IMG/VR virus record: IMGVR_UViG_3300033172_000005 | Length of the DNA: 41,630 nucleotides | Reading direction: 5' to 3' (one strand) | Source: a virus | Shown: one piece after another, positions 9,888 to 40,423 of the stretch | Numbering within the stretch: the stretch's first letter is position 1 | How the letters are laid out: the number at the start of each line of letters is the position of its first letter | Program-made: the position numbers and the translations under genes | The notes under the pieces: generated by a model | Told to the model about the DNA's origin: nothing | The model's input: the letters and a program-made list of their open reading frames with translations, nothing else | Databases searched by the model: none

Positions 9888-12800
9888 CTATGCCCTCCTG
9901 CGAATCATGCCGGCGATGCGGTAGGCCAGCGCCTCTTCATCCAGATCCCCCGCCAGCTTCGCCACGCTCACGTTGACCGTCACCGGCGCCGGCTGCTCCA
10001 GCATGGCCCGCGTCTCGTCTGCGCTGAAGACCGCCGCGCCGCGCGGCAGGTTGACCAGCTCCGGCCCCTCCTCGCCCACCAGACTCAGCCCGCCGCGCCA
10101 GTACGGCGTGCCCGCCGCATTGGCCCCCACCGGCACGGCCGGCCCCGTCGCCCCCATGCCGCCGCGCACCGTCACCACCGGCGACCACGCCAGCAGTTCG
10201 CCCAGCCAGCCCGGCCGCGGCAGCTGCAGATCCCCGATCCAGCTCGGCCGCGGGATGCTCGGCCACACCCAGCGCGGCAGCGACGGCCAGCGCCACGCCG
10301 GATACGCCGGCCACACCCATTCCGGCAGCGACGGCCACGAGAACGAGAACGAGTTCAGCGCCTCCGCCGCCTGGTTGGCCGCATTCATCGCCGGGTCTTC
10401 GCCCGCCGGCGTCATCTTCATCACGCCCTCGACGGGCAGCCGCCCGGAGGCGTCGCCGCCTACCGCCGTCAGGTCCAGGCTCTGGATCTCCAGCGCCCCG
10501 TTCACCGCCGGCAGCCCGCCGTCGAACTGCGTCGGGTCCACCATCACATCCTCGATGCTGAACGGGCAGGAGATCGCCTCGATGTCCGGCGGCACTACGA
10601 TCTCCGTCGCCTCCACCGTCGCCTCGATTTTGTTGCCGCGGCCGAACAGGTTGTTCACGTTCGACCAGATGTCGCCCCACGTCGGCACGCCCAGCCGCTG
10701 CTCCGCCGCGCCCATGACCTTGCCGACCGGCCCCAACGTCAACGTCTCCAGCGGCGTCTGCTGCGCAAACTGGCTCTTAATCGCCAGCAGGATGGCGTCC
10801 TTGATCGCCGTCCCGATGCCGCTCCAGTCCGCCTGCGCCAGGCCGGTCACGACGCCGGTCAGGAAATTCTGCACGAAGGCGTCGACGTTGGCCTGAAACT
10901 GCGTGATGTCCGTGGCGGAAATCTGGTTCATGAAATTGCCCACGAACGCCGCCGCCGCCTCGACGATGGCCGCCGTCGCCGTGCCCACCGCTACGCCCAG
11001 GTCCGTGGCGAACGTCTCGCTGCCCAGCATCTCGCCCAGCTTGGACGAGATCGCCTTGCTCAAATTGCCCGACGCTGTGCCCAGGTCTCCGAAATTGCCC
11101 GGGTCGAACACGGCCGCAATGCCCTCGCTCAGCGCCGTAGCCGAGGCCGCCAGCGCCGTCGTGATGGCCTCCGCATCCCACGCGCTCACCGCGTCGCTCA
11201 ACAGATTCATCAGCGCGGTCAGCCCCTTGGTCAGCGCGCCCGTCGCAGTCAGGATCACGTCGGTCTTCGTGGCGTTGACCACGCCGATTGTCTCTAGGAT
11301 GCTCGCCACCGCGGCGTTGAACCGCGCCGCCGCGGCCATGTCGCCGACCTCGCCCATGCGCGTCTGGATGCGGTTCACCACGCCCGCCACGCGGTCGACG
11401 TTGCGCTGTACGAACTCCGCCGCCGGCCCGCTCTCCGCCAGCACGCTCTGCACCCACTGCCGCGCCGCCGCCGTGGTGCGCTCCACCCAGGCGCGGATGC
11501 CGCTTTCGTCGACGAACGCCTCCGCCTGCGCTATCGCCGCGTTGGCCTGCATGCGCAGCGCCGCCATGCCCATCACCGCCGCCAGCAGCGCCGTCTGCTG
11601 CAGGTCCGCCAGCCCCGCGCCGATGGCCTCGCCCACGCTCGCCGTCTTGCTGCGCGCCAGCTCGGCAATGCCCGCCCAGCTCCCCGTCTCGAAGGCCGCC
11701 TCGAATTCGACCGCCAGGCTCTGCACATGCGCCGTGACCTCCGCCACCTGCGTCGTCGCCTGCGTTTTGATCTCCTCGATCGTCGCCGCATCCAGCCCCT
11801 GGACCATCCCCGCCAGCGCCGTCGCCGCATTCGTCAGCGCCGTCGCCGCGTTCGTCGCCCACGCCGCCACCGTCTCCAGGATGCCCATCTGCTGCAGATA
11901 CGGGTACGCCAGCCACGCCGCCGCGCCGATCGCCGCCACAGCCGCCACGACCAGCCCCGCCGGCGAGACCAGCGCCGACGCCGCCACGGTCAGCGACCCC
12001 AGCGCCATCAGCAGCGGACCCGCCGCCGCAGCCGCCGCCGCCGCCGTCACGATCCAGAACTGCAGCTTGGGGTTGGCGTTGGCGAAGGCGTCCGCCAGCG
12101 CCAACGCCTTCTCCGCAATCGGCTCCAGCGCGTCCAGCGCCGCCAGTTTGGCCGGCCCCAGCCCGTCGTTGATCTTCTGCAGGAACACCTCCCAGCGGAT
12201 GCCGGCCTGCTGCGCGGCGAAGCCGGCGGCGTTTATGCCCTCCGTCTGCGCGCGGAATGCGGCGTCCGTCGCGCCCGCCGCATTCTCCATCGCCCCCAAT
12301 TTTTCCGTATAATCGTCCGCCAGCGGACCCGCCAGCGCCAACGCCAGCGTCTGCCCCTCGATGCTGCCGATGAATTTCTGCAGCGGCGTTCCGCTCGCCT
12401 CCGCCGCCGCCACGATTGCCTGGATGGCCCCGATCAGGCCGTATTGCTGCAGCATGGCCGCGCCGGTCTCGACGTTCATCGCCTTGAACAGATTCGTCAT
12501 GTCCGCCGTAGGGGCCATCAGGCTCTGCAATATGCCGCGCAGCTGCGTGCTGACCTCGCTGGCGCCGCCCGTGACGCCCGTGGCCGTCGCCATGACGGCG
12601 AACAATTCCTCCTGCGCCACTGCCAGCGCCGACGCCAGCGGCACGACGCGCCCGATGCTCGCCGCCAGTTCCGGGAAACTCGTCTGCCCCAACTGCACCG
12701 TCACGAACGCCAGGTCGCTGGCGTGCTGCACCGCCTCCGCCGAGGTGTCCCCGTATCCCTTCGTCACGGCCGAGGTGAGCGCAATCGCATCGTTCACCGT

Positions 12801-13208
12801 CGCCAGCCCGGCGGCCGCCGCCTTGACGTTGGTCTCCAGAATGCGCGCCGTGTCCGCGCTGTCGCCGAAGGCGGAGACGACCTGATACAGGCCCTGCGCC
12901 ACGTCGGTGGTGCTCTTGCCCGCCTCGATCGCCAGGTCCTGCACCGCCGTTTTCAGCTCGCGCGTGCGCTCCGCCGCCAGCCCCAGGCTCTGCACGTTGC
13001 CCATCTCGCGGTCGAGCGCCGTCCCCGCCTTCGTCGCCATGGCGGCGATGCCGATCAACGGCGCGGTAATGCCGGCCGTCATGACCTTGCCCGCGTTCTG
13101 CATGGCCCGGCCCGCTGCCTTCACGCTCTGCTCCGCGCTCGCCAAGCCGCGCTCCAGGGCGGTCGTGTTCGCCTCGATCTTGATTGCCAACGTGCCGATT
13201 GTCGCCAT
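9888..13208 (-). CDS. Tail tape measure protein (1106 aa).
   Basis: N-terminal tape-measure core (AGKSTTDVAQGLYQVVSAFGD...LAFVTVQLGQTSFPELA), long Ala-rich helices and a W/P-rich repeat block (WPSLPEWVWPAYPAWRWPSLPRWVWPSIP). Follows the G/GT chaperones. Confidence 0.9.
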   Translation of the reverse strand: MATIGTLAIKIEANTTALERGLASAEQSVKAAGRAMQNAGKVMTAGITAPLIGIAAMATKAGTALDREMGNVQSLGLAAERTRELKTAVQDLAIEAGKSTTDVAQGLYQVVSAFGDSADTARILETNVKAAAAGLATVNDAIALTSAVTKGYGDTSAEAVQHASDLAFVTVQLGQTSFPELAASIGRVVPLASALAVAQEELFAVMATATGVTGGASEVSTQLRGILQSLMAPTADMTNLFKAMNVETGAAMLQQYGLIGAIQAIVAAAEASGTPLQKFIGSIEGQTLALALAGPLADDYTEKLGAMENAAGATDAAFRAQTEGINAAGFAAQQAGIRWEVFLQKINDGLGPAKLAALDALEPIAEKALALADAFANANPKLQFWIVTAAAAAAAAGPLLMALGSLTVAASALVSPAGLVVAAVAAIGAAAWLAYPYLQQMGILETVAAWATNAATALTNAATALAGMVQGLDAATIEEIKTQATTQVAEVTAHVQSLAVEFEAAFETGSWAGIAELARSKTASVGEAIGAGLADLQQTALLAAVMGMAALRMQANAAIAQAEAFVDESGIRAWVERTTAAARQWVQSVLAESGPAAEFVQRNVDRVAGVVNRIQTRMGEVGDMAAAARFNAAVASILETIGVVNATKTDVILTATGALTKGLTALMNLLSDAVSAWDAEAITTALAASATALSEGIAAVFDPGNFGDLGTASGNLSKAISSKLGEMLGSETFATDLGVAVGTATAAIVEAAAAFVGNFMNQISATDITQFQANVDAFVQNFLTGVVTGLAQADWSGIGTAIKDAILLAIKSQFAQQTPLETLTLGPVGKVMGAAEQRLGVPTWGDIWSNVNNLFGRGNKIEATVEATEIVVPPDIEAISCPFSIEDVMVDPTQFDGGLPAVNGALEIQSLDLTAVGGDASGRLPVEGVMKMTPAGEDPAMNAANQAAEALNSFSFSWPSLPEWVWPAYPAWRWPSLPRWVWPSIPRPSWIGDLQLPRPGWLGELLAWSPVVTVRGGMGATGPAVPVGANAAGTPYWRGGLSLVGEEGPELVNLPRGAAVFSADETRAMLEQPAPVTVNVSVAKLAGDLDEEALAYRIAGMIRRRA

Positions 13209-14362: not shown

Positions 14363-14761
14363 CTACTCCTCATACTGCACCATAAAATCCGCTGCAACCG
14401 TGTGGACGCGCGCCTCCTCGTCGAAGCCCACAGCAAACACGCCCTCGCTCAGACAGGCCCAGATGTCCACGGTCGACGCCGTGCCCCGGTATCCGTCGAG
14501 CGCCCCCAGCACTGCCGCCGCAATCGCCCGCGCGTTGGCGTAACTGCCGCTATGGCACAGATAACTCACCCGCGCCCAGGCCAGCCCCTCCGGCCCCGCC
14601 ATGTCGTGGTGGGGCGAGCCGCTGACCAGCTCGTACGTGATGTAATCTGCGCCTGCAACGCTCTGCGCCGCGACCACCGGGTAGATCCGGGTGGATACCA
14701 GGCCGGTCACGCCGCTCGTCGCCACAAGCTTGGCGTACAGCGCCTCCTCTATCGTCGCCAT
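14363..14761 (-). CDS. Tail completion or tail terminator-like protein (DUF3168-like).
   Basis: ATG at 14761 (MATIEEALYAKL...RIYP...) shares 1 nt with the upstream TAA stop. Position is between the gp10-like gene and the major tail gene. Confidence 0.65.
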   Translation of the reverse strand: MATIEEALYAKLVATSGVTGLVSTRIYPVVAAQSVAGADYITYELVSGSPHHDMAGPEGLAWARVSYLCHSGSYANARAIAAAVLGALDGYRGTASTVDIWACLSEGVFAVGFDEEARVHTVAADFMVQYEE

Positions 14762-15207
14762 TAAATCCTCGCGGCCTTCTTCGTCGCCGCCGACATCGCC
14801 GCCTGCGCTTTCTCCCGGCTTGTGTCGACTGCCGGGCGCATAAACGGCCGCGCCCGTGCGCCCGGGTGCCGCGCCCACGCCACCAGCCGCCCGCCGATGA
14901 GCAGCGCGCGCCGGCGTCGCGGCCGGATCATGTGCGGCCGCGTGCCGAACTCAACCAGGTGCGCGATCTTCCTGTGCGCCTTGCCCGGCCGCACCTCGAC
15001 CGTCACATCGGTGCGCCGGCGGCGCGTGGTCTTCTGCTCCAGGTCCTCGGCAATCGAGCCGGGCGCGCGGCGCATCGCCGCCTCGCGCACCACGGTTGCG
15101 CCGGCGTGACAGATCACCTCCAGCCCGTCCGCCACGTCCACGCCGCGCCGGTGCAGCTCGCGCACCACGTCGTCTATACCGTCCACCCGCACGCTGATAT
15201 TCGCCAT
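14761..15207 (-). CDS. HK97 gp10-like head-tail joining or tail component.
   Basis: MANISVRVDGIDDVVRELHRRG...HLVEFGT matches the gp10 family pattern. ATG at 15207. Confidence 0.7.
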   Translation of the reverse strand: MANISVRVDGIDDVVRELHRRGVDVADGLEVICHAGATVVREAAMRRAPGSIAEDLEQKTTRRRRTDVTVEVRPGKAHRKIAHLVEFGTRPHMIRPRRRRALLIGGRLVAWARHPGARARPFMRPAVDTSREKAQAAMSAATKKAARI

Positions 15208-15229
15208 GCACAACCTTTGCACACTGTTT

Positions 15230-15259: not shown

Positions 15260-16786
15260 TCAGCCGACCGCCGACCGCCGCCGCCAGGCCGCCTCAAGCC
15301 GCGGCGCATACACGTCCACGCCGCCCGATCCGTTGTATTTCGCCGCAATCGTGCGCCAGTCCCTCGCCCGCACCGCCGCCATCAAATCCGCATCCGTCAG
15401 CATGTAGTTGATGAAGGCCACGATCTGCGCCGCCTCGCCGCTCTGCCGGTCCGCAAACGCCGCAAACATCTGCTCAACCGAGCCGTAACCAACCCGCTCA
15501 TGGTTGAAGCCCATGATCTGCGGCCGCCCCATGCTGATCGACCGCAGCGCCGCCCGCCGGTTCACGTTCTCGGCAAAACGGAACGCAGCCCACTCGCCCG
15601 CCTGCCCGCTGTGGATCACCGTCCACGGCTCGCCGGGCACGGCCCGCCAGTACTGCGGCTGTTCCCATGGCCGGCTGTCCGCAATCCGGAAATGCCGCCC
15701 GAACAGCGCATCGTCGCCCAGCTCCGTCTTGAAAATGTGCGCCTCGAACCGGATCACCAGCCGGCCCCCCTCGCCGAACGCCGCGCCGCTCTCCACATCC
15801 AGAATCGCCATCATCACCGCCGGGTCGAGCGCGCCCCCCTGCGGCTGCATCACCGTCGGAATGTGCACCGTGTGCGTCTCCTCTTCCAGCCGCCGCTGCA
15901 ACGCCGCCAGTTCGCCGGCAATCGGAGCCGTGTCGAAGGTCGACCAGATTTTGTCGCGGAAATCGGTCATGTACAGCCGCACGGCAGCCACGTCGTCGCG
16001 CACGCCCCGCGCATACCGCTCCACCTCCGCCACGTATGCCGCCGGCTCGCGCACGCCGATCCAGCCCTGGTGCCCGGCGCGCCGCCCGTTGACCAGCATC
16101 TCCAGACCGAATTCGCCGATCTTCCAGCGCGGCCCGCGCGGCGCCCATTTGTGCCGGAACACATGCCACGGGTTCACGTCCGGGTCGTCGAGGCCCAGAT
16201 CGTTGTAATACTCGTGCACCACCGCATAGTGGTCGCCGCGCACGATGGCGTCGAGCGCCCCGGCCAACGGCGACCAGTCCGGCTCCCCGCTCGCATTGAG
16301 CAGCGCCGGATGTCCCGTGCCCAGGTTCAGCGCCTCGGCCCGCAGCCCGTGTTTGCGCAGCCCCTCGCACGCCGCCGCGGTGTACTCATTGATCTGCGCC
16401 ATCAGGTCGTTGCTGTCCGGCTCGTTGATCAGATGCACCAGCAGCTGTTCGCGTTCCGGTATGCGCGCCCCGCGCCGCCTGGCCTCCGTTTCCATCGCCT
16501 GCACCCGCGCCGCCATCTCCTCGGCATGGCTCACCCCGCACAAATGCGGGTCGCTGCGCAAAAACGCATACACGCCCTGCGGATCCTGCTTCGTGCGCCC
16601 GTCGTCCAACTCCCACCAACGCAGAGCGACCTCCGCCTCCGGCGCCATGGCGTGCGCGTCGATCACGTCCTGCACGTCCGGCTGCAGGATCAGCACGTCA
16701 TACGGACGCACCTGCCGCAGATAGTCCAGGTCGCCCGGCCGATCCGCCTTGTGCGCCGGACCCCAGTACACGCTCAGCCTGGTCAT
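15260..16786 (-). CDS. Two-domain endolysin: an N-terminal clan GH-A-like TIM-barrel glycosidase plus a C-terminal N-acetylmuramidase-like domain.
   Basis: The N-terminal domain carries INEPD and IGEFGLE, the NEP acid/base and EFG nucleophile signatures of clan GH-A. The C-terminal LDVESGAAFGEGGRLVIRFEAHIF...MGRPQIMGFNHERVGY...AAKYNGSG resembles the DUF3380/PF11860 muramidase family. ATG at 16786 overlaps the holin stop (ATGA). Confidence 0.75.
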   Translation of the reverse strand: MTRLSVYWGPAHKADRPGDLDYLRQVRPYDVLILQPDVQDVIDAHAMAPEAEVALRWWELDDGRTKQDPQGVYAFLRSDPHLCGVSHAEEMAARVQAMETEARRRGARIPEREQLLVHLINEPDSNDLMAQINEYTAAACEGLRKHGLRAEALNLGTGHPALLNASGEPDWSPLAGALDAIVRGDHYAVVHEYYNDLGLDDPDVNPWHVFRHKWAPRGPRWKIGEFGLEMLVNGRRAGHQGWIGVREPAAYVAEVERYARGVRDDVAAVRLYMTDFRDKIWSTFDTAPIAGELAALQRRLEEETHTVHIPTVMQPQGGALDPAVMMAILDVESGAAFGEGGRLVIRFEAHIFKTELGDDALFGRHFRIADSRPWEQPQYWRAVPGEPWTVIHSGQAGEWAAFRFAENVNRRAALRSISMGRPQIMGFNHERVGYGSVEQMFAAFADRQSGEAAQIVAFINYMLTDADLMAAVRARDWRTIAAKYNGSGGVDVYAPRLEAAWRRRSAVG

Positions 16787-17088
16787 TCCCGTTCCTTCTC
16801 CATCTCGGCGCGCGCCTCGCGCATCAGCCGCGCCTGCGCCGCCAACGGCAGCGTATCGCCCGGCCGGCTCAGCGGCTCCCCGTCCACATCGCGCGGATTC
16901 GCCAGCGGCGTCACCTGCGCCCTGGCCCACAGCGCCGCCGCAATCGGCGTCACGGCCACAATCGCCGCCAAGATCGCCGCCTGCTGCTCCGCCGTCAGAT
17001 CGATCACGCCCAGACTCACCAACGCCGCCAACACAGCCCCAACCGCGCCCGCAATCGCAGCGGCGCTCAACACAGGTTCCTCGTTCAC
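16783..17088 (-). CDS. Holin candidate (two transmembrane helices, charged C-terminus).
   Basis: LSAAAIAGAVGAVLAALVSLGVI and AAILAAIVAVTPIAAALWA are hydrophobic helices. GTG start behind a GAGGGGG SD. Translationally coupled to the endolysin. Confidence 0.65.
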   Translation of the reverse strand: MNEEPVLSAAAIAGAVGAVLAALVSLGVIDLTAEQQAAILAAIVAVTPIAAALWARAQVTPLANPRDVDGEPLSRPGDTLPLAAQARLMREARAEMEKERE

Positions 17089-17104
17089 GGCAGCCCCCTC
17101 ATCT

Positions 17105-17341
17105 CTATTCGTCAGACCGGCGGCACAACTTGTCGATTGCCTGCTGCAGCCCGTTCATCGCCCGCGCGTTTTCCTCCAGCACCTGGATCATGCGCATCTT
17201 GTCCTCGCGCGTGTCCTGCGAATACATCTGCTCCCGGCGCATCGCGTCCTGATACGTCCGGTTGAGCGTGTATAATGCCAGCGCCGCAATGCCTGCGATC
17301 CCCGCCTGTCCGATAAGCCACTCGATAAATTGCGTCTCCAT
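17105..17341 (-). CDS. Small membrane protein with a coiled-coil tail (holin, antiholin or lysis-accessory candidate).
   Basis: METQFIEWLIGQAGIAGIAALALYTL forms a transmembrane helix followed by a charged helix. A GGAG SD precedes the ATG at 17341. Confidence 0.6.
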   Translation of the reverse strand: METQFIEWLIGQAGIAGIAALALYTLNRTYQDAMRREQMYSQDTREDKMRMIQVLEENARAMNGLQQAIDKLCRRSDE

Positions 17342-17363
17342 CACGCTCCGCACCCGTCGCTCA

Positions 17364-18323
17364 CTATTCGACCCCCACCCACGGCAGCCACGCCTGCACC
17401 GGCGCGGTCGCCCTCCACGCATTCACCCGTCCATCGCCGCAGCGGTCGTCGCGCCCCGGCTCTCCGCAATCGTCTGCGCTCGCACGCAGCAGCGCCGCCA
17501 CGCCCTCCGCTGTCAACTCAGGCCGCGCCGCCCACACGAGCGCCGCTGCGCCCGCCGCGTGCGCCGCCGCCATCGACGTGCCGCTGCGGATCGCATAGCC
17601 GCCCGGCGCCGCGCTCCAAATCTCCACCGCCGGCGCAGCCACGGCGATGTGCGGCCCGTAGTCGCTGCGCCAGTAGACGCCGTCCACATAATCCGTGCCC
17701 GATACGGCATAGGCGTACGCCGCCGGGTAGAACGGGGCGCCACAGCCGCCGTTGCCCGCCGCCGCCACGACCAGCGCCCCCCGCTCCTGCGCATAGACGA
17801 CCGCCTCGCGCAGCGCCCCGCCGGCGAAGTACGCGCCGGACGCAATCAGAATCACCTGCGCCCCCGCATCCGCGGCGTACACGATGCCGTCGATCAGCGC
17901 GCTGTACGTGCCATAGCACTCATCCGCCATCGCCTTGACCGGCAGGAGCATCGCCCCCGGCGCAACAGCCGCCACGATGCCCGCCAAATGCGTGCCGTGC
18001 CCGCACACGTCGCCCGTGTCGCCGCCGTCCCACACGTTGCGCCCCGGCAATACGCGCCCCGCCAGATCCGGGTGCGCAGCGTCGACGCCCGAATCGACCA
18101 CGGCGACGACAACGCCCGCCCCGTCGGCCATCGCCCACGCCTGCGGGACGCCCACGCGCGCCGCGCCCCACTGCTCAGCGCCGTCCGCGGCGTATACCCG
18201 CGCCGGCTCGACAGCCGGATAGGTCGTCACGTCAATCGCCGGATAGGTCGGCGTGTCGCCGGCGAGGACCCGCACCGGCAGCAGCGCCAACAGCAGCGCA
18301 ATCGCCGCAGCCCTAAACGACAT
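17364..18323 (-). CDS. Secreted subtilisin-like serine protease (peptidase S8).
   Basis: Signal peptide MSFRAAAIALLLALLPVRVLA. The catalytic D (VAVVDSGVD), H (HGTHLAGIV), oxyanion N (AAAGNGG) and S (GTSMAAAHAAG) occur in S8 order. A GAGGTGA SD is present. Confidence 0.85.
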   Translation of the reverse strand: MSFRAAAIALLLALLPVRVLAGDTPTYPAIDVTTYPAVEPARVYAADGAEQWGAARVGVPQAWAMADGAGVVVAVVDSGVDAAHPDLAGRVLPGRNVWDGGDTGDVCGHGTHLAGIVAAVAPGAMLLPVKAMADECYGTYSALIDGIVYAADAGAQVILIASGAYFAGGALREAVVYAQERGALVVAAAGNGGCGAPFYPAAYAYAVSGTDYVDGVYWRSDYGPHIAVAAPAVEIWSAAPGGYAIRSGTSMAAAHAAGAAALVWAARPELTAEGVAALLRASADDCGEPGRDDRCGDGRVNAWRATAPVQAWLPWVGVE

Positions 18324-18326
18324 CGT

Positions 18327-18692
18327 TCACCTCGTCACCAACGGAAGCCATGTCACCTCACGCGGCTCGAACATCCGCTCGTACAGCCGCCTCGCCATCG
18401 GCGGGTACAGCGTCACGTCGCCCATGCTGTACGACGCGCCCCCCGCCCAAATCTCGTCGTGATTCCAGCGCCCCGCCGCCTGCACCCACATGCCCGGCCA
18501 CACGCCGTCGCCGTGGCGGTATACGCGCATCAGCTCGCGAAACGGACGCCAGCGCGGGCGATGCACCAGGTCGCTCTGCGCAATCATCATGTCGATCAGA
18601 TACGCGCTCATGGCGTCCGTCTGAAACAGAAACCACCACACATGCGCCGCCTCGTGCACCGCCGCCTCGTGCTGCGCCGTATACAGCACCAT
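18327..18692 (-). CDS. Small HExxH-motif protein (121 aa). Putative Zn-metallopeptidase-like protein of unknown family.
   Basis: N-terminus reads MVLYTAQHEAAVHEAAHVWWF, with HEAAH forming HExxH. Lies 4 nt upstream of the S8 gene. No clear SD. Confidence 0.5.
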   Translation of the reverse strand: MVLYTAQHEAAVHEAAHVWWFLFQTDAMSAYLIDMMIAQSDLVHRPRWRPFRELMRVYRHGDGVWPGMWVQAAGRWNHDEIWAGGASYSMGDVTLYPPMARRLYERMFEPREVTWLPLVTR

Positions 18693-18764
18693 GCGCCAGC
18701 ACAGCGTCCGCCGCCTCAGGCCGGTAGCGATAGCGCAGCAATACGTCGCGCAACCACGAATGGG

Positions 18765-19142
18765 TCACGGCTCCGGCTCCTCGGCGGGGAACCCGCTCAG
18801 CGTCCCCTCGCCCTGCACCTCCCAGCACAGAACAACCTGCTCGTGTCGCCGCCCGTCCGGGTCCAACACGCTCTCGATCTCCAGCGTGCGCCCCTCCCAC
18901 ACCAGCCGGTGGCTCACCGGACTCAACCCCGAAAAAAAGCGCATGCGCACCTGGTACGGCGCACGCGCCTGCAAAATCTCCGCGCCGGCCGCCATCTTCT
19001 CACGCGCCGTCGCCATCATCGGCCGCACCTCGGCCCACACCGTCTGCGCATCATCCCAGGCCGGCGCTTCCTCGCCGAAACTGTTCGCCGTCCTCGTCGA
19101 CGCCTGGATCGTCACCCGCTCGCGCAGCCGTCCCGCTCGCAT
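18765..19142 (-). CDS. Head-tail adaptor or head closure protein (HK97 gp9/SPP1 gp16-like).
   Basis: MRAGRLRERVTIQ...NSFGE...W..VWAEV...YQVRMRF...RLVWEGRTLEIESV matches the family pattern. Confidence 0.8.
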   Translation of the reverse strand: MRAGRLRERVTIQASTRTANSFGEEAPAWDDAQTVWAEVRPMMATAREKMAAGAEILQARAPYQVRMRFFSGLSPVSHRLVWEGRTLEIESVLDPDGRRHEQVVLCWEVQGEGTLSGFPAEEPEP

Positions 19143-22826: not shown

Positions 22827-23687
22827 TTACTCCAACTCAGCCAGTTGCAGGCCCCGCGCCCTGCGCCGCGCCCGCTCCATCTTCAACCGATCCGCCTCTG
22901 CCTCATCCCCATCCGTCTCAGACCACCCCGGCCACGTCCGCATAGCCGCCGGCAGGCTCACCCGATACCGCTCCTCCAAGGCCGCCAGCAGTTTCGGCGT
23001 CAACTGTCCCTCCGCCGCCATCCGCTCCGCCTTCAGAATCGCCGCCCCGGGCGTCGCCCCGTCGTATACCGCCGACACCTCCGCCAGCCGCGCGTCCCGG
23101 ATCTCCACCGTCGCCAGTTGGGTCCGCACTACGCCGTCCTCTTCCCGCTCATACTCCAGCCCCGCAAAATGCGGGCATTCAAAACTCAGATAATTGCGGC
23201 CGCAGATGTCGCACACCCAGCGCCCGCCATAGAACCCCACCGACACGTCGTGCACGATCCCGCTGCGCACGCCGGCGATGAAATCGTTTGTGTTCACGCC
23301 CGCCAGCCGCAGCCCCGCCAGCGTGAAAAAATCGGCCTCGACGACCGTTTCCTCGCCGCTCTCTCGCACCTCGCCCGTCAGCGACCGGCCCAGCGGCATC
23401 TCGTGCCAGCGATGCGAGTTCTGGAACGACACGCCCTCCGCCGCCGCCCGCGCGAAATTCGCCAGCGTGCTCGCCGCCATGTGCGTGTAGTACGCATCCA
23501 GCCGCGACGAGCTGATCTCCGCCCGCCAGAAAAACGGGTCCGACTCGTCGAACACCGCCGGGTCATACGCGCTCTGCTCCCGCGCCATCTGCAACAGCGC
23601 CTCCGCCCGTTCGCCCCGCACGGCCGCCGCCCGCGCCGCATGCGCATGCACCACCCGCTCAGTCTCCATCTGACTATTGCTCCTCAT
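22827..23687 (-). CDS. Prohead maturation protease (HK97/S78-like) with a Cys-rich insertion.
   Basis: FQNSHRWHEMPLG and DVSVGFYGG are His- and Ser-containing motifs. Lies between portal and capsid. An alternative start ATG at 23669 (METERV) sits behind an AGGAG SD. Confidence 0.7.
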   Translation of the reverse strand: MRSNSQMETERVVHAHAARAAAVRGERAEALLQMAREQSAYDPAVFDESDPFFWRAEISSSRLDAYYTHMAASTLANFARAAAEGVSFQNSHRWHEMPLGRSLTGEVRESGEETVVEADFFTLAGLRLAGVNTNDFIAGVRSGIVHDVSVGFYGGRWVCDICGRNYLSFECPHFAGLEYEREEDGVVRTQLATVEIRDARLAEVSAVYDGATPGAAILKAERMAAEGQLTPKLLAALEERYRVSLPAAMRTWPGWSETDGDEAEADRLKMERARRRARGLQLAELE

Positions 23688-27111: not shown

Positions 27112-27798
27112 CTACGGCCTATGCTCCACCACAACCAGCGGATCCGCCCAAATCCCGAACCCCCGCGCCCGCGCCATCCGGCACAGACCCCGGTCCACCT
27201 CCGCCGCCGTATACCGGCAGCCCGCCCGCAGCACCTCCGCCCGCATCAACAGCGTTCCGCCCACCGTCTGCATCTTCACCAGGTCCCGCCCATAGCGCCG
27301 CCCCAGGTCGAACCGCCCGAACGCCGGCACGCCGCGCCCGTCTTCCGTGCTGAACGCCCAGATGTCGTAGAACACATTGCCCATAAACACGAACGGCGCA
27401 ACCAGGTCCGCCCCCGGCCGCTCCAGATCATCTGCCAGCCGCTGCAGCATATCCGCCTCATACACGATGTCGCTCGGCAGCATCAGCACATAATCCGACC
27501 AGCCCAGGTCGACCGCATCCATGCCCGCATTATACACCGTCGCCAGCGTCGCAAACCGCTCCGCATTCACCACGCTCCCATAATGCGGCGCGCCCGTATC
27601 GCAGCGCACCACCCGCCAGCGCGGATCCCAACACGCCTGCTCTTCCAGCCGCGCCCGCGTCCCGTCCGCGCTGTCGCCCTCCACCGCAACCACGCGCAGC
27701 GCCTCCCACTCCCACGCCAGCCCGTCCACCCGGTCCGCAAACGCCTCGACCCGCCCCTCGCAATCGCGGAACGGCGCAACAATCGTCACATTCCCCAT
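27112..27798 (-). CDS. Family-2-like (GT-A fold) glycosyltransferase, 228 aa.
   Basis: VTIVAPFRDCE...VVAVEGDSADGTRARL resembles the GT2 N-terminal signature (xDxSxDGT). LPSD acidic motif. No transmembrane segment. Confidence 0.7.
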   Translation of the reverse strand: MGNVTIVAPFRDCEGRVEAFADRVDGLAWEWEALRVVAVEGDSADGTRARLEEQACWDPRWRVVRCDTGAPHYGSVVNAERFATLATVYNAGMDAVDLGWSDYVLMLPSDIVYEADMLQRLADDLERPGADLVAPFVFMGNVFYDIWAFSTEDGRGVPAFGRFDLGRRYGRDLVKMQTVGGTLLMRAEVLRAGCRYTAAEVDRGLCRMARARGFGIWADPLVVVEHRP

Positions 27799-27799
27799 A

Positions 27800-27874
27800 T
27801 CACTCTCCCAAACACGCTAGCCACACGGCCAAAACCATCACGATCATCGCCCACATCGCCTGGTCGAACGTCAT
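27800..27874 (-). CDS. Micro hydrophobic peptide (24 aa), not in the ORF track.
   Basis: MTFDQAMWAMIVMVLAVWLACLGE. Its ATG directly abuts the acyltransferase TAG. Its stop lies 1 nt before the GT2 ATG. Confidence 0.35.
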   Translation of the reverse strand: MTFDQAMWAMIVMVLAVWLACLGE

Positions 27875-28357
27875 CTAGTCCCCCCATCTGATCAGCCCGC
27901 TGGAAGTCACCCTCCCCACGAAACGGGGTTGCGGCGTGAGTTCCCGCGCCGGATTCCCCGCCACGATGGCGAACGCCGGCACATCGCGCGTCACCACCGC
28001 CCCCGCGCCCACCAGCGCCCCGCGCCCGATGCGCACCGGCAGCAGCACCGCCCCGCTGCCGATGCTCGCCCCATCCTCGATCACCGTCCGCAAATGCCCC
28101 GGCGCGCCTTCCGTCGAGGGCCGCTTGTCGTTCGTCGTCATCACCCCATGCCCGATGAACACCCCGTTCCCCACGCGCACCCCCGCGCACAGAAACGTGT
28201 GGCTCTCGATCTTGCAGCCCTCGCCGATCTCCACATCCTCCTGGATCTCCACGAACGGCCCCACGAACGTCCCCGCCCCGATGAAACACCGGTACAGGTT
28301 CACCAGGTCAGGGAAGGGGATCCGCACCCCCTCCCCCAGCACGCAGTTCTCAATCAT
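27875..28357 (-). CDS. Hexapeptide-repeat (left-handed beta-helix) acyl/acetyltransferase, 160 aa.
   Basis: Repeated [LIV]-G-x4 turns: IGEGCKIESHTFLCAGVRVGNGVFIGHGV...IEDGASIGSGAVLLPVRIGRGALVGAGAVVTRDVPAFAIVAGNPAR. ATGA overlap with GT4. Confidence 0.8.
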   Translation of the reverse strand: MIENCVLGEGVRIPFPDLVNLYRCFIGAGTFVGPFVEIQEDVEIGEGCKIESHTFLCAGVRVGNGVFIGHGVMTTNDKRPSTEGAPGHLRTVIEDGASIGSGAVLLPVRIGRGALVGAGAVVTRDVPAFAIVAGNPARELTPQPRFVGRVTSSGLIRWGD

Positions 28358-29556
28358 CCCTGATCCGCCAACTCCGCAATCACCGGCTGCCAGTAATCCT
28401 CCACCACCCTGTCCCAGCCGTACTCCTCGTGCGCCCAGCGGCTCGCCTCCCGCCGCAGCGTCATCGGCCAACGCCCGCCCTGCAGCGCCCAATCCTCATA
28501 CAGCCGCTCCAGCGCCGCCTGCATCCCCCGCCAGTCCGGCCAACTCCACCAACATCCCAGATGCGACCAGCACAGATCCGCCGGCGCAACCCGCTCGCCC
28601 CACATCACCAGCTCGCTCATCGACGCGAAATCCGTCGTCACCACCGGCGTGCCGCACGCCTGCGCCTCCAGGATCGGCAGGCCGAACCCCTCGCTCTTCG
28701 ACCCCGCAATCAGCGCATCCGCGCAGTTATACAGGGCCACCATCACGTTCTCCGGGTAACCCATCCAGTACTGGCGCTGGTCGGCAAACACCACCCGATC
28801 CAAAATGCCCAGCTCCCGCGCCAGCTCCGTCAGGTCATAACCGCCGAACCGCGTCCCCGCCTCCGTGTGCACATACAGCCGCGCCTGCGGCTTGCCCGCA
28901 GCGAAGGCCGCCCACGCCCGCAAATTGCCTTGAAAATGCTTGCGGTCGTCGCTGCCCTTATTCGCCGCCACCATCAGCGTCAAATGCTCCACGCCGGGGA
29001 ACCACTCCTCCCGCCAGTGCGCCCGCTCCGCCTCGTCCAGCACGCGGAACGTTTTCGGCTCCACCCCGTGCGGCACATACAGCGCCCGCTCTACGCCCGC
29101 CTTGTGCAGCTCCTCCAGCCCCCAGCGGCTGTACACCAACGGCCTGTGCGCCGTATCCAGCGCCGCCCGCACCCGCGCCGCCACCGGCGCCCCGTCGACG
29201 GGGAACCACGGCAGCCACTTCGCCGGCGCAACCCGCTCCCCCACCCCGTGTTGCGTCCACACGTCGATCAGCGTAATCACCGCGTCCGCCTCGAAATCCC
29301 GCGCGTACGCCCCGATCATATCCGTCCCGTACGGCTGCGCCCCTGCCGGATAAACCCTGAACCCGTCCACCATCATCGAACCGCCGGCAAGTCCGAACCA
29401 GGCAAACATCGCCACATTCTCACGGCCGCCCACCTCCGGCAGCGCCGCCAGCCGCGGCAGCAAATGTTTGCCCTGCGTTCCGTATCCGGTCGACACCCAA
29501 AAACCATTTGAGGAGTACAGGATCCTCAGCCCCTTCCGCCCTTCTCCGTTCGCCAT
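28354..29556 (-). CDS. GT-B fold, family-4-like glycosyltransferase, 400 aa.
   Basis: E-x7-E motif in SKSEGFGLPILEAQACGTPVVTTD. ATG at 29556 (MANGEGRKGLRILY) behind a GAGGA SD. Confidence 0.8.
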   Translation of the reverse strand: MANGEGRKGLRILYSSNGFWVSTGYGTQGKHLLPRLAALPEVGGRENVAMFAWFGLAGGSMMVDGFRVYPAGAQPYGTDMIGAYARDFEADAVITLIDVWTQHGVGERVAPAKWLPWFPVDGAPVAARVRAALDTAHRPLVYSRWGLEELHKAGVERALYVPHGVEPKTFRVLDEAERAHWREEWFPGVEHLTLMVAANKGSDDRKHFQGNLRAWAAFAAGKPQARLYVHTEAGTRFGGYDLTELARELGILDRVVFADQRQYWMGYPENVMVALYNCADALIAGSKSEGFGLPILEAQACGTPVVTTDFASMSELVMWGERVAPADLCWSHLGCWWSWPDWRGMQAALERLYEDWALQGGRWPMTLRREASRWAHEEYGWDRVVEDYWQPVIAELADQG

Positions 29557-29578
29557 TCGTTGATCCTCGTCGTTGTGC

Positions 29579-30508
29579 CTATCTGCTGAATTGCCAAAGG
29601 GCTGAAACTCGCCCCATATCCCACGCAGCCGCCATCTGCCGGCGCAGCTTCTCCTCAACCTGCTCCGCGCCTGCTTCCGAATACCATTGCAGAGCTGCCC
29701 CGTCCCGATCTGTCAACACATCCAGCAAAATGCCGTAGCGCAGCGCCGCTTCGATGTACGGTTCCGGCGTATACCATTCGTTATTTCCGCTGTTGTGCGT
29801 TACGTGCGGACGCACGTTCCGCTCTGGCGCTTCCGCATATATGTCATCTATTGTTTCGTAATCTTCAGGGTATCCGCCCCACACCTCAGCCTGCTCAGCC
29901 GATGTTGGTTCCGGCCCAGAAGCCCACGCCGGCAGCGGTTGCGGTTCGGGCTGGGACAGCGGTACAACCGTCCGCTTACCGATGTTCTCCGTGTTGATCG
30001 TGTAGGTTGTGCCGTTGCGGGTGGCTTTGATCTTATCTGGGCGTTGCATCTTGCCCACTGAGCAGGATGCAAACTCGGCAAACCAACGGGAAAGAGTCTG
30101 CCGCGGGATCATTGTGTGGCGGGCAATTTCGCTCTGACCCTTGCCAAACCATTCAGGATCAAAATAGATGCGTTGGGCGATCTTCTTCAGATCGGCACTG
30201 TTACGCCGCAGCCCATAATCTCGATTCGCACCCAACGCCCACCACTGAGCATCGCGCTTTGTCCCATGGTGTAGTTCGGCGGGAAAGACCATCAATCCGG
30301 CATAATCTCGCGCCGCTGTAACGCGATGAAAACCATCCGCCAACCAGTAAGTAGAGCCGTCGAAGAACACCACCACGGGCGGAAACTGTGCGCCGTCTTT
30401 CATGGCCGCGGCATACTCGCCAACAACGATCATGTCGAGCTGATAACGCGCTTGTATATCTTCATCAAGCACAATGGATCTGAGTTCTATTTCTTTCATT
30501 TCGTTCAT
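29579..30508 (-). CDS. ParB-like nuclease domain plus HTH protein, with a truncated Dam-type methyltransferase start at the C-terminus.
   Basis: FFDGSTYWLADGFHRVTAA is the ParB/Srx DGxHR motif. GQSEIARHTMIPRQTLSRW is an HTH. NNEWYTPEPYIEAA resembles an MTase N-terminus, but no (D/N)PP(Y/F/W) follows. Lower GC by eye. Confidence 0.7.
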   Translation of the reverse strand: MNEMKEIELRSIVLDEDIQARYQLDMIVVGEYAAAMKDGAQFPPVVVFFDGSTYWLADGFHRVTAARDYAGLMVFPAELHHGTKRDAQWWALGANRDYGLRRNSADLKKIAQRIYFDPEWFGKGQSEIARHTMIPRQTLSRWFAEFASCSVGKMQRPDKIKATRNGTTYTINTENIGKRTVVPLSQPEPQPLPAWASGPEPTSAEQAEVWGGYPEDYETIDDIYAEAPERNVRPHVTHNSGNNEWYTPEPYIEAALRYGILLDVLTDRDGAALQWYSEAGAEQVEEKLRRQMAAAWDMGRVSALWQFSR

Positions 30509-39466: not shown

Positions 39467-40423
39467 TCATGAAGAACCCAACGCCGCCCAAACCGCCTCG
39501 CCCTGCTCGCTCGCCGGGTCATCCAACGAGCGCACATAGATGTCCGTCGTCTGCAGGCTGCCGTGATGCAGCATCGCCCGCAGCCCATCCAGGTCGTGCG
39601 TCTGCCGGTAGTAGAGATGCGCAAACGTGTGGCGCAGATCGTGCAGCCGGTACAGCTCCCACCGCTCCACGCCCGCAGCCCGCAGCGACTGGCGAAAAAT
39701 GCGCCGCGCGTTGCTCTCCGAGATATGCGCCCGTCGACGTTTCAGCCCTCCGGGCGCGCCCAGCAGGTTGCCCGTCCCGTGGTCCTGCAATGGCGCAAAT
39801 ACGAAATCGCCGTTCGGCGCCAGCGCCCGATAATGCTCCAGCGCCTCCCATGCCCGCGCCGGCAGCGGAACCCAGCCGCTTTTGCCGCCTTTGCCCTGCC
39901 ACGCCCACATCCACCGCCCCGGCTCGCTGCGATGCGGCCGCAGCGCCGCCCAGCTCATGCGCACCACCTCGGCCGCACGCGCCCCGGTCAGAAAATAGAC
40001 CAGCAGCAGCGCCTGATTGCGCGCCCCGCGCTGCGAACCCGCCCGGCTCGCCAGATAATCGAACAGCAGCCGCAGATCCGCATCGGGCAACACGTTGGCG
40101 TGGCCGTAGGGCTGCACCCGCTGCCGGCGCACCTGCAACAGCGGATTCTCCGCCGGCCCCAGCGCCGCAGACTGCCGCATCGCGAACTCGCACAGCGAAG
40201 ACGCCGCCGCCAGCCGGCAATTCACCGACGCCGCCGCCAGCCCCTTCGCCCGCAGCGCCCGCTGCCAACTGCGCGCCTCCGCGCCCGACGCCTCGCCCGG
40301 CGATACGCCCGCCTGCTCCAGATGCGCCAGCCATTCCGCCGACGCACGCGCATAGGCGCGGCGCGTGTGTTCGCTCGCCGTCGCCTGCAGCCACTGGTCG
40401 CGCAGCCGCAGCCACGCGCTCAT
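39467..40423 (-). CDS. Second tyrosine recombinase (XerC/D-like, 318 aa).
   Basis: LVYFLTGARAAEV (Arg I), LHDLRHTFAHLYY (HxxR) and LHHGSLQTTDIYV (catalytic Tyr). The ATG at 40423 overlaps the stop of the upstream endonuclease gene (ATGA). Confidence 0.85.
   Translation of the reverse strand: MSAWLRLRDQWLQATASEHTRRAYARASAEWLAHLEQAGVSPGEASGAEARSWQRALRAKGLAAASVNCRLAAASSLCEFAMRQSAALGPAENPLLQVRRQRVQPYGHANVLPDADLRLLFDYLASRAGSQRGARNQALLLVYFLTGARAAEVVRMSWAALRPHRSEPGRWMWAWQGKGGKSGWVPLPARAWEALEHYRALAPNGDFVFAPLQDHGTGNLLGAPGGLKRRRAHISESNARRIFRQSLRAAGVERWELYRLHDLRHTFAHLYYRQTHDLDGLRAMLHHGSLQTTDIYVRSLDDPASEQGEAVWAALGSS

Follow-up and report, generated by a model that had tools for sequence, protein, structure and literature searches.

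The window considered here is the whole 41,630-nt stretch of IMG/VR record IMGVR_UViG_3300033172_000005, to which all coordinates refer; it belongs to an uncultured, temperate phage whose genome encodes a repressor of the XRE type (XRE gene at 532-942) along with two tyrosine recombinases and has a tRNA-Val at 1477-1555 with an integrase attachment site next to it; both ends of the window consist of phage genes, with no host genes. Inserted between the head-closure and Neck1 genes is a lysis cassette that encodes an S8 subtilase, a 78-aa protein, a holin and an endolysin, and the genes of this region are arranged as follows:

18765..19142, minus strand: head closure protein Hc1 (PF05521, E 1e-24; PHROG 25, E 1e-21), the upstream border of the cassette
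18327..18692, minus strand: 121-aa ORF, corresponding to residues 53-173 of a 173-aa zincin (alignment with the intact gene)
17364..18323, minus strand: S8 subtilase of 319 aa (PF00082, PHROG 3677, thermitase alignment, catalytic residues)
17105..17341, minus strand: 78-aa protein with one N-terminal transmembrane segment and a charged, helical C-terminal part (hydropathy), conserved in L003
16783..17088, minus strand: holin candidate of 101 aa with two transmembrane segments and a charged C-terminus (PHROG 9752 'holin', E 1.5e-5; hydropathy)
15260..16786, minus strand: endolysin of 508 aa with a C-terminal PF11860 muramidase domain (E 1.4e-34)
14761..15222, minus strand: Neck1/HK97 gp10-like protein (PF04883, E 7e-6; PHROG 5, E 4e-19), the downstream border of the cassette

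The holin (PHROG 9752) and endolysin (PF11860) genes lie downstream of the S8 gene on the same strand, just where the original prediction had placed them, and the 78-aa protein, for which the Pfam, PHROG and NCBIfam family searches returned no match, is a candidate holin, antiholin or lysis regulator. Promoter or terminator signals on the coding strand do not rise above chance between 14.5 and 20 kb, which is consistent with transcription of S8 and the late genes on one late transcript. A near-identity DNA search with the 13-25 kb section of the window against 50,697 phage records gave no match, and no close relative in a cultured phage was found in the searches against phage records.

The S8 ORF has a strong coding signature (GC3 0.87) and is under purifying selection, with a dN/dS of 0.14 against L003. 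It matches the Pfam Peptidase_S8 profile PF00082 over its full length (1-288 of 288; E 7.8e-37; 127.6 bits, cut-off 21.8) and PHROG 3677 'protease' at E 9.5e-50, and its closest solved structure is thermitase, to which residues 49-306 align at E 2e-44. The Asp, His and Ser stand in the order of the S8 peptidases, together with the oxyanion-hole Asn; all four residues line up with thermitase and are invariant in an alignment of 13 close relatives, so that the complete catalytic set proposed earlier for this ORF is upheld by the profile and by conservation among homologues. These residues and the N-terminal segment are located at:

18261..18323, minus strand: signal-peptide-like N-terminus of S8, residues 1-21, ending VLA/GD (hydropathy; equivalents in 13/13 relatives)
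18095-18093, minus strand: catalytic D77
17999-17997, minus strand: catalytic H109
17753-17751, minus strand: catalytic N191
17576-17574, minus strand: catalytic S250

The N-terminus, MSFRAAAIALLLALLPVRVLA, is the only strongly hydrophobic N-terminal 19-mer by hydropathy; on a heuristic reading it comprises R4, a 13-residue hydrophobic core and then VLA/GD, and its hydropathy and its conservation suggest that it may act as a Sec signal peptide. Hydropathy reveals no hydrophobic segment at the C-terminus. C107 and C136 are invariant across the S8 clade, an invariance compatible with an extracytoplasmic enzyme. Subtilases normally require a pro-region for folding, and the cellular relatives of this protein carry one of about 100 aa, whereas the window S8 does not: Pfam places the beginning of its catalytic domain at residue 68, mature residue 10 of thermitase aligns to its residue 49, and no pro-sized segment separates the signal-like segment from the catalytic domain. 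In the cellular relatives P0009 and P0012, which lie in metabolic gene contexts, the domain begins at residue 129-132, and in phage P0007 directly after the signal peptide; these differences in domain start (68 versus 129-132) indicate that the phage copies have lost the pro-sized extension. An S8 enzyme without a pro-region might be inactive, or might depend on a partner.

The features that bear on the gene immediately upstream are the following:

18358..18768, minus strand: zincin reading frame from the ancestral GTG, with codons 1-26 (THSWLRDVLLRYRYRPEAADAVLAH) native and the remainder out of frame to the stop at 18358 (L003 alignment)
18691..18698, minus strand: deletion junction, with the surviving 8-nt repeat copy TGGCGCAT; 80 nt of L003 are missing in the window
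18656-18642, minus strand: HEAAH, codons 13-17 of the 121-aa ORF

A 121-aa HExxH protein had been proposed here, and both the ORF and its HEAAH are present, but the ORF is not a complete gene; it represents the 3' two-thirds of a 173-aa gene, which is intact in L003 and L012 with 96-97% protein identity to the window ORF. The intact gene starts at a GTG that overlaps the stop of the head-closure gene; the equivalent GTG in the window, at 18768, likewise overlaps the Hc1 stop and is preceded by a GAGGAG Shine-Dalgarno, and the ATG at 18692 that opens the 121-aa ORF has no Shine-Dalgarno at a useful distance. In the alignment of L003 with the window, columns 105-184 are gapped in the window, the left edge in L003 being CTGGCCCAT and the right edge TGGCGCAT; the deletion of 80 nt is out of frame and lies between the near-identical 8-nt repeats TGGCCCAT and TGGCGCAT. 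It removes zincin residues 27-52, that is, two strands and the start of a third, so the 121-aa ORF keeps HEAAH and the downstream Glu but lacks both N-terminal helices and the greater part of the three-stranded sheet. Judged from its sequence, the zincin gene in the window is inactivated by this frameshifting deletion, and the phage therefore most likely relies on S8 alone.

The family to which the intact gene belongs comprises 132 representatives, nearly all of them with HExxH, and an alignment of 44 sequences shows no variation at H65, E66 and H69 and almost none at E132. Further motifs are S-x-GGG, Q-x-E-A-x-x-HExxH, N-x-x-E-x-x-AG-x-x-S-x-x-MGD and LPP, together with a C-terminal tail. The AF2 model (pLDDT 96, pTM 0.89) has a zincin fold of helices, a three-strand sheet and the HExxH helix, so that the HExxH helix after a beta-sheet and the conserved downstream Glu are both in place. 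No signal peptide is present, and in relatives the domain forms part of larger extracellular proteins that also contain lectin, fn3, TIG or dockerin domains. Profile searches of Pfam, NCBIfam and PHROG gave no family match; the family profile found chance-level matches only among PDB sequences; Foldseek against the PDB with a shallow model (pLDDT 65) and with the good one (pLDDT 96) returned nothing below E 0.7, and against BFVD weak zincin matches only (best E 0.014). A tblastn search of 50,697 phage records had no match, and a genome-collection scan with zincin patterns yielded 184 pattern matches, 0 of them confirmed. The HExxH helix after a three-strand sheet and the downstream conserved Glu are held in common with the small zincins (ImmA/IrrE M78, SprT-like, MPTase-PolyVal and minigluzincins), and the weak Foldseek matches, almost all of them zincins, include a putative peptidase of phage PaBG (probability 0.96), polyvalent-protein zincins, SprT and IrrE; what sets the family apart is that it matches no Pfam, NCBIfam or PHROG profile, has no PDB counterpart at a Foldseek E below 0.9, and has its own motifs and C-terminal tail. 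On sequence and model it would thus be a previously undescribed (HExxH...E) metallopeptidase family.

The tail belongs to a motif, T-V-[HYW]-[LIV]-P-h-h, that is common to the C-terminus of S8, the C-terminus of the zincin and the interdomain linkers of the endolysins (4/4 examined). In the window it is seen, with the motifs of the N-terminal endolysin domain, at these positions:

18356-18330, minus strand: zincin C-terminal motif VTWLPLVTR
17367..17393, minus strand: S8 C-terminal tail AWLPWVGVE, with L313 and P314 invariant in 13/13 relatives
16426-16418, minus strand: NEP of the endolysin N-terminal domain of about 320 aa
16216-16208, minus strand: HEY of the same domain
16117-16106, minus strand: GEFG of the same domain
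15871-15848, minus strand: endolysin linker motif TVHIPTVM

There are 19 occurrences in 66,879 aa of phage ORFs, and 17 of them fall in S8, zincin or endolysin, against about 4 expected (background 0.061 per 1000 aa). A similar C-terminal tail is found in 25 of the 120 best S8 matches, and it is rare outside Chloroflexota in a genome-collection scan with S8 patterns; that scan brought up 80 generic subtilases at no more than 43% identity and no close member of the clade. It is possible, but doubtful, that the motif is a functional short signal tying S8, zincin and endolysin together. It could be a lineage-specific, Chloroflexota-type tag for wall targeting or attachment, borrowed by phages from host exoenzymes, or else the site recognised in a phage protease cascade, with S8 cleaving the endolysin and maturing the zincin. 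A literature search found no description of a C-terminal sorting motif in Chloroflexota.

The endolysins next to S8 also have in common a second, N-terminal domain that is called GH-A-like from its NEP / HxY / ExG / W motif pattern only; a PDB profile search with it gave no match, nor did tblastn against the 50,697 phage records. Such a second domain points to a multilayer envelope that would require several enzyme activities.

Gene neighbourhoods place S8 within two genes of an endolysin in 4/6 lineages examined, on different phage backbones. In the window, L003 and L012, S8 stands beside the holin/endolysin cassette. The order in L005 is S8, a 66-aa protein, zincin, PF11860 endolysin and holin; in the siphovirus L006, inside the connector module, it is a transmembrane protein, a holin-like protein, a phosphoesterase, S8 and a PF11860 endolysin; and in the SU10-like L011 it is a SU10-type capsid, an S74 fibre, S8, a GH108 endolysin and holin. 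The adjacency of S8 and endolysin therefore recurs on three unrelated backbones (L005, L006, L011) and with two peptidoglycan-hydrolase domains (PF11860, GH108), and co-location and co-orientation of S8 with the lysis cassette are found in the window, L003, L005, L006 and L011. The L004 and L005 contigs have a coverage of 1.2-1.6x, and for that reason no interpretation is given to their frameshifts. Two lineages have no endolysin adjoining S8, namely L007-L010 and L108, in which the neighbours are uninformative. Three lineages have conserved zincin and S8 as a gene pair; in one of them, a prophage whose contig was assigned to a Chloroflexota MAG bin, the two reading frames overlap. This conservation supports the earlier suggestion that the HExxH protein is a partner metallopeptidase. 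A related prophage is found, for example, in GCA_030058085.1. The zincin often occurs by itself, either next to genes for head closure or the neck or closing a tail-fibre operon, with no lysis genes near (L017, L103, L001/L019). A homology between the 279-aa gene upstream of the zincin in L001 and the 280-aa gene upstream of S8 in L006 was rejected (BLASTP E 0.098), and with it fell the notion that S8 and zincin are positional equivalents.

These data are best read, with middling confidence, as pointing to S8 as an accessory lysis enzyme that breaks down a protein layer in the envelope of the host, with the zincin as its usual partner; this role is supported most strongly by the recurrence of the S8-endolysin linkage on different phage backbones. 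The proposal that an exported S8 in the lysis module serves envelope proteolysis stands in that a complete subtilase sits in the cassette and its linkage to endolysin recurs in L005, L006 and L011, but the phage itself most likely has no intact zincin partner. The gene structures, catalytic residues, purifying selection, conserved synteny, the deletion and the zincin fold are established by the analysis; for S8 we infer export, timing, substrate, host and effect on lysis in the following terms. The gene would be transcribed together with the late structural and lysis genes, and the protein would be exported via Sec before the holin fires, probably being active on arrival because it has no pro-region; it would then digest an envelope protein layer (S-layer, sheath or wall protein) beyond the reach of the glycosidase endolysin, after which holin triggering and endolysin action would release the virions. 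For the zincin, in which a signal peptide is missing, the predicted path to the wall is the holin lesion, the same as for the endolysin.

S8, with the zincin, might instead be a host-derived moron, a secreted exoprotease that serves the lysogen or infected cell in nutrient supply or surface remodelling and has no part in lysis, its position reflecting a permissive connector hot-spot. This is unlikely, though several observations lean towards it: the nearest relatives of S8 outside phages are secreted subtilases encoded by cells, the phage is temperate, the zincin-S8 pair of L007-L010 lies amid glycosyltransferase morons with no endolysin, and in L017 the same connector slot is occupied by glycosyltransferases and radical SAM genes. 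Against it stand the endolysin adjacency on three unrelated backbones with two peptidoglycan-hydrolase domains and the motif common to S8 and the endolysin linker; a promoter-like site near S8 was not found on the coding strand, the S8 start follows tightly behind the upstream gene within the late operon with a Shine-Dalgarno of its own, and the phage copies have lost the pro-region.

A processing role, in which S8 cuts the endolysin at the shared motif and trims its own tail and that of the zincin, possibly activating them in a small cascade, is distinctly improbable. It draws on the position of the motif at the extreme C-terminus of S8 and zincin and in all four endolysin linkers examined, on the excess of 17 of 19 occurrences in these three proteins, and on a pattern of aromatic or hydrophobic residue, X-Pro and hydrophobic residue that resembles, from general knowledge of S8 enzymes, classical subtilisin substrates such as AAPF. 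Yet a cut 2-6 residues from the C-terminus serves little obvious purpose, the residue after the motif Pro varies (T, A, L, W, M, V, F), and until the holin fires the membrane would separate S8, on the outside, from the endolysin, on the inside. The tail is also found at the end of cellular S8 relatives that have additional, unrelated C-terminal domains, and of a DUF1501 protein with a Tat signal encoded on a Caldilineaceae contig, which fits a general C-terminal signal better, and tail-bearing zincin genes occur on contigs without a visible S8.

Of still lower probability is a receptor-destroying or exclusion enzyme, whose late export would strip a protein receptor from the cell and debris and prevent re-adsorption of progeny or superinfection; the predicted export, the missing pro-region, the late operon and a conserved tail with a possible role in cell-surface targeting are compatible with it, but nothing observed points to it specifically, and it leaves the endolysin linkage and the pairing with a signal-less zincin unexplained. 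The earlier alternative, in which the XRE repressor would be cut by an anti-repressor protease of the ImmA/IrrE type, suggested by HExxH and the weak Foldseek likeness to IrrE/PprI among other zincins, is effectively refuted, since the M78 profile PF06114 finds 1/44 members at E 0.18, the gene is part of the late structural operon, at a distance of 17 kb from the XRE gene, its relatives are domains of extracellular proteins, its tail is shared with the predicted exported S8, and the window copy is truncated.

Among known systems, thermitase and the subtilisins (MEROPS S8, subfamily S8A) have the same fold family and D-H-(N)-S arrangement, but the window enzyme differs from them in having no pro-region, in its conserved C-terminal tail, and in being encoded by a phage within a lysis cassette, a setting for which a literature search found no description of an S8 protease. 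The best-scoring NCBIfam model is the T7SS mycosin TIGR03921, a name borne by many database neighbours; an assignment as mycosin was rejected, the 168.7 bits being below the cut-off of 278.75 and both a C-terminal membrane anchor and a T7SS context being missing. The only S8 matches in the 50,697 phage records are S8 domains of Bacillus and Moorella phages (the 'subtilase family alkaline serine protease' of vB_BtS_BMBtp16; SPO1-like Goe phages), which at 30-36% identity, and with coverage below 80% of the query except in two records, are not close relatives. As an extra lysis factor against a layer outside the peptidoglycan, S8 would resemble mycobacteriophage LysB, spanins and disruptins in function only. 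LysB is a cutinase-like esterase and spanins are not enzymes, their substrates being mycolyl-arabinogalactan and the outer membrane; S8 belongs to another protein family, its presumed substrate is protein, and its predicted route is Sec export rather than release through the holin.

The host is probably a Chloroflexota-type bacterium, tentatively so named from one Chloroflexota MAG bin and from the occurrence of the same C-terminal tail on one Caldilineaceae contig; among TerL relatives with 68% identity both Anaerolineae and Betaproteobacteria names occur, which leaves the host inference ambiguous. To our knowledge, phage lysis is understood almost wholly from Proteobacteria, Firmicutes and mycobacteria, where each envelope layer has its own phage factor, be it holin, endolysin, spanin or LysB, and with a secreted subtilase as a recurring member of lysis cassettes this logic would reach protein layers as well. 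Here S8 is usually paired with a new zincin, beside an endolysin with two glycosidase-like domains, in phages of poorly studied, probably Chloroflexota hosts; the three are candidate enzymes for dissecting or opening the envelopes of filamentous bacteria important for anaerobic digestion and the treatment of wastewater. A concrete lead to a sorting signal or processing site is given by the shared terminal motif: either reading, if true, would introduce a new principle into phage lysis, and the tag reading would also be a new bacterial protein-sorting signal.

The prohead protease is encoded apart from S8, in agreement with the original prediction; its candidate gene at 22827-23687, for which a Pfam search gave no match, lies between the portal and capsid genes, and the relatives that tblastn retrieves for it bear the annotation head maturation protease.

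The best-supported reading of the 319-aa subtilase (S8) is that of a putative accessory lysis enzyme, and the interest of the finding rests mainly on comparative evidence. The genes around S8 all lie on the minus strand, show a strong third-position GC signature and, read 5' to 3' along that strand, run as follows:

Portal protein gene, minus strand, PF04860, first in order
286-aa ORF, minus strand, next after the portal gene, annotated in phage relatives as head maturation protease
Major capsid protein gene, minus strand, PF05065, after the 286-aa ORF
Three small ORFs, then the head-tail adaptor gene, minus strand, after the major capsid gene
19142-18765, minus strand, head closure protein Hc1
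18692-18327, minus strand, 121-aa ORF
18323-17364, minus strand, S8 ORF
17341-17105, minus strand, 78-aa protein with one transmembrane (TM) segment
17088-16783, minus strand, 101-aa protein with two TM segments, matching a PHROG holin family
16786-15260, minus strand, 508-aa endolysin, PF11860 muramidase domain at the C-terminus
Neck1/gp10-like protein, tail terminator and major tail protein genes, minus strand, downstream of the endolysin

This gene order places the lysis cassette, together with the 121-aa and S8 genes, inside the connector module; the cassette (15260-19142) consists of a zincin remnant, S8, the TM protein, the holin and the endolysin, flanked by Hc1 and Neck1. The original prediction had set S8 beside holin and endolysin genes, and the profile matches of the 101-aa and 508-aa proteins confirm this. 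A comparable cassette lies immediately upstream of Hc1 in a siphovirus with an SPP1-type portal (L006), and the same connector slot of a related contig (L017) is occupied by glycosyltransferase, methyltransferase and radical SAM genes, of which one has an intein-like insert; the Hc1/Neck1 slot looks like an insertion hot-spot.

The assignment of the protein to the S8 proteases was likewise upheld: the Pfam subtilase profile is matched over its whole length (E 7.8e-37), and an alignment with the 12 closest relatives (46-95% identity) shows the catalytic residues D77, H109, N191 and S250 unchanged throughout, as C107 and C136 are across the clade. The nearest solved structure is thermitase (E 2e-44), with S8 residues 49-306 corresponding to mature residues 10-277. 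Compared with the 95% identical copy in the related contig L003, dN/dS is 0.14; the gene is therefore under purifying selection. The N-terminal segment, which has a counterpart in every relative, looks like a cleavable signal peptide, and S8 is predicted to be exported. The thermitase-like mature domain starts only about 27 residues after the predicted cleavage site, and in a phage homologue (P0007) the S8 domain begins immediately behind the signal peptide, whereas in two cellular members of the clade (P0009 and P0012), whose genes adjoin methyltransferase and hydrolase genes in non-phage contexts, it begins at residue 129-132; the phage copies have therefore lost an extension of pro-region size. 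The top NCBIfam model is a mycosin equivalog, an identity ruled out by the score (168.7 bits, far under the cut-off of 278.75) and by the lack of a C-terminal anchor in S8.

Six genomic contexts of S8 were distinguished among the window and other contigs:

A (window, L003, L012): S8 in the Hc1-Neck1 lysis cassette with the zincin
B (L004, L005): S8, 66-aa gene, zincin, PF11860 endolysin, holin
C (L007-L010): 185-aa zincin, overlapping S8, structural genes; prophage-like, with a tape measure gene
D (L006): TM protein, two-TM holin-like protein, phosphoesterase, S8, PF11860 endolysin, 165-aa gene, Hc1, Neck1
E (L011): SU10-type capsid, S74 fibre, S8, GH108 endolysin, holin
F (L108): neighbours uninformative

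In four of these six lineages an endolysin gene therefore lies no more than two genes from S8, a linkage that extends over at least three unrelated backbones and two different peptidoglycan-hydrolase domains, and the S8-zincin pairing recurs in three lineages. The first pattern favours the lysis interpretation of the original prediction and the second its idea of a partner metallopeptidase; as a whole, that interpretation is partly supported. In context C no endolysin gene adjoins S8, and the zincin matches the family profile with E 1e-58. Elsewhere the zincin is found with no S8 in view, behind head-closure-type genes (L017, L103-L105) or as the final gene behind tail-fibre-like genes (L001, L019). 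The zincin genes of L004 and L005 (ENA contigs) show apparent frameshifts near the HExxH region at a coverage of just 1.2-1.6x, which are probably sequencing errors.

The HExxH-bearing 121-aa ORF of the original prediction exists and has zincin-family homologues (172-179 aa), but is the remnant of a 173-aa gene. Two related contigs from other metagenomes, L003 (JGI 3300021603) and L012 (IMG/VR 3300020814), share the gene order of the window; in both, the gene is intact and its start codon overlaps with the stop codon of Hc1. In the DNA alignment, 80 nt of L003, bounded by CTGGCCCAT and TGGCGCAT, are missing from the window; the junction (18691-18698) lies between near-identical 8-nt repeats, and the out-of-frame deletion disrupts the gene. 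The ancestral GTG start (18768) and its GAGGAG ribosome-binding site are retained, and the frame from this GTG shifts past codon 26 and continues to 18358. The ATG of the 121-aa ORF stands immediately behind the junction, where relatives carry I, V or M, and has no usable Shine-Dalgarno sequence. The deletion, which may be a real variant or an assembly artefact, takes out residues 27-52 (two strands and the start of a third), so that the 121-aa product, even if translated, would on the structural model lack the sheet from which one wall of a zincin active site is normally built.

A six-sequence profile searched against 1.84 billion proteins recovered 132 cluster representatives of this family, nearly all with HExxH. 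In a 44-sequence alignment G41, H65, E66, H69, S139 and P149 are invariant and Q59, E61 and E132 nearly so. The AlphaFold2 model built from this alignment (pLDDT 96, pTM 0.89) has two helices, beta strands at 27-33, 41-45 and 51-57, the HExxH helix (60-75) and four further helices, a predicted zincin layout for the intact 173-aa protein. Foldseek returned nothing below E 0.9 in the PDB and only weak matches among viral models, almost all of them zincin peptidases. The family matches no Pfam, NCBIfam or PHROG model. The proposed ImmA/IrrE-like role is without support. Some relatives form part of large proteins that also contain lectin, fn3, TIG or dockerin domains, suggesting extracellular action.

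A homologous N-terminal domain, about 320 aa long and located at 15830-16786 in the window, is common to the endolysins of the window, L006 and L011 (25-26% identity; E 5e-12 to 3e-22); the domain that follows it at the C-terminus is either PF11860 or GH108. The N-terminal domain matches no Pfam or PDB sequence. With L005 included, its invariant positions comprise N-E-P, H-x-Y, E-x-G and a late Trp, a pattern usual in clan GH-A glycosidases; this domain is a candidate clan GH-A-like glycosidase and may provide a second, non-peptidoglycan glycosidase activity.

Both protease families end in a similar tail, T-V-[HYW]-[LIV]-P-h-h (AWLPWVGVE, VWLPMEAS and VYLPALLGE in S8; TWLPLVTR, VHLPLVMFS and IYMPMVWG in the zincin), and the motif also occupies the linker joining the two domains in each of the four associated endolysins (THTVHIPTVM, HTVHIPALVV, HKVYVPVITV, YTVHLPFVV). 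In the window it is found at:

17367-17393, minus strand, S8 tail
18330-18356, minus strand, zincin tail
15848-15871, minus strand, endolysin linker

It occurs also in L001, L003, L005, L006, L008, L011, L012, L017, L019 and L103. Coding-like ORFs of 11 phage loci (66,879 residues) contain 19 occurrences, where the background rate of unrelated loci would give about 4; of these 19, 17 fall exactly at an S8 end, a zincin end or an endolysin linker. Cellular S8 relatives end with the motif as well, and a similar tail closes 25 of the best 120 S8 database matches, some with extra C-terminal domains. Within a set of 80 subtilases taken from diverse genomes, the consensus tail QQVYLPLVANP appeared only in one Caldilineaceae contig, on which it is also carried by a DUF1501 protein whose N-terminus is Tat-like (L028, 4664-3279); a looser pattern flagged five more, none resembling the consensus. 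These data are compatible with a lineage-specific wall-targeting tail or with a subtilase recognition site, and there are arguments against each. The 165-aa gene following the L006 endolysin (12374-12871) begins with the motif-like MHEVRLPLVMAD, and the S8 homologue P0055 begins with MSFYTSYLPLAL.

As an accessory lysis enzyme, S8 would be exported before holin triggering and attack a protein layer of the envelope beside an endolysin with two glycosidase-type domains, normally together with a zincin partner that the window phage would have lost. This follows the known concept, exemplified by LysB and the spanins, of an extra factor for an extra envelope layer; new here are the enzyme class, its pairing with a new zincin family, the pro-region loss and the shared motif. 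Literature searches found no paper on such an S8 lysis cassette, and S8, the zincin and the endolysin N-domain have no close relatives in cultured phages. A context C contig was binned to a Chloroflexota MAG, and the host is probably, on weak support, a member of this phylum.

Genes outside this region encode a large terminase, a tape measure protein, two tyrosine recombinases, an XRE-type repressor and sugar-modifying enzymes, and the window also has a tRNA-Val. The genome is that of a temperate siphovirus, and the 50,697 deposited phage genomes include no close relative. The tRNA-Val (anticodon CAC), which together with the recombinase gene directly downstream of it spans 1477-2560, may be an attachment-site marker or a phage-borne tRNA; the second recombinase gene (39467-40492) is near the opposite end, and neither end of the window shows evident host genes. 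A cluster at 27112-29658 encodes a GT2 glycosyltransferase, a hexapeptide-repeat acyltransferase and a GT4 glycosyltransferase, and glycosyltransferases are also present in the related phages L007-L010 and L017, suggesting that the host surface or the virion is modified.
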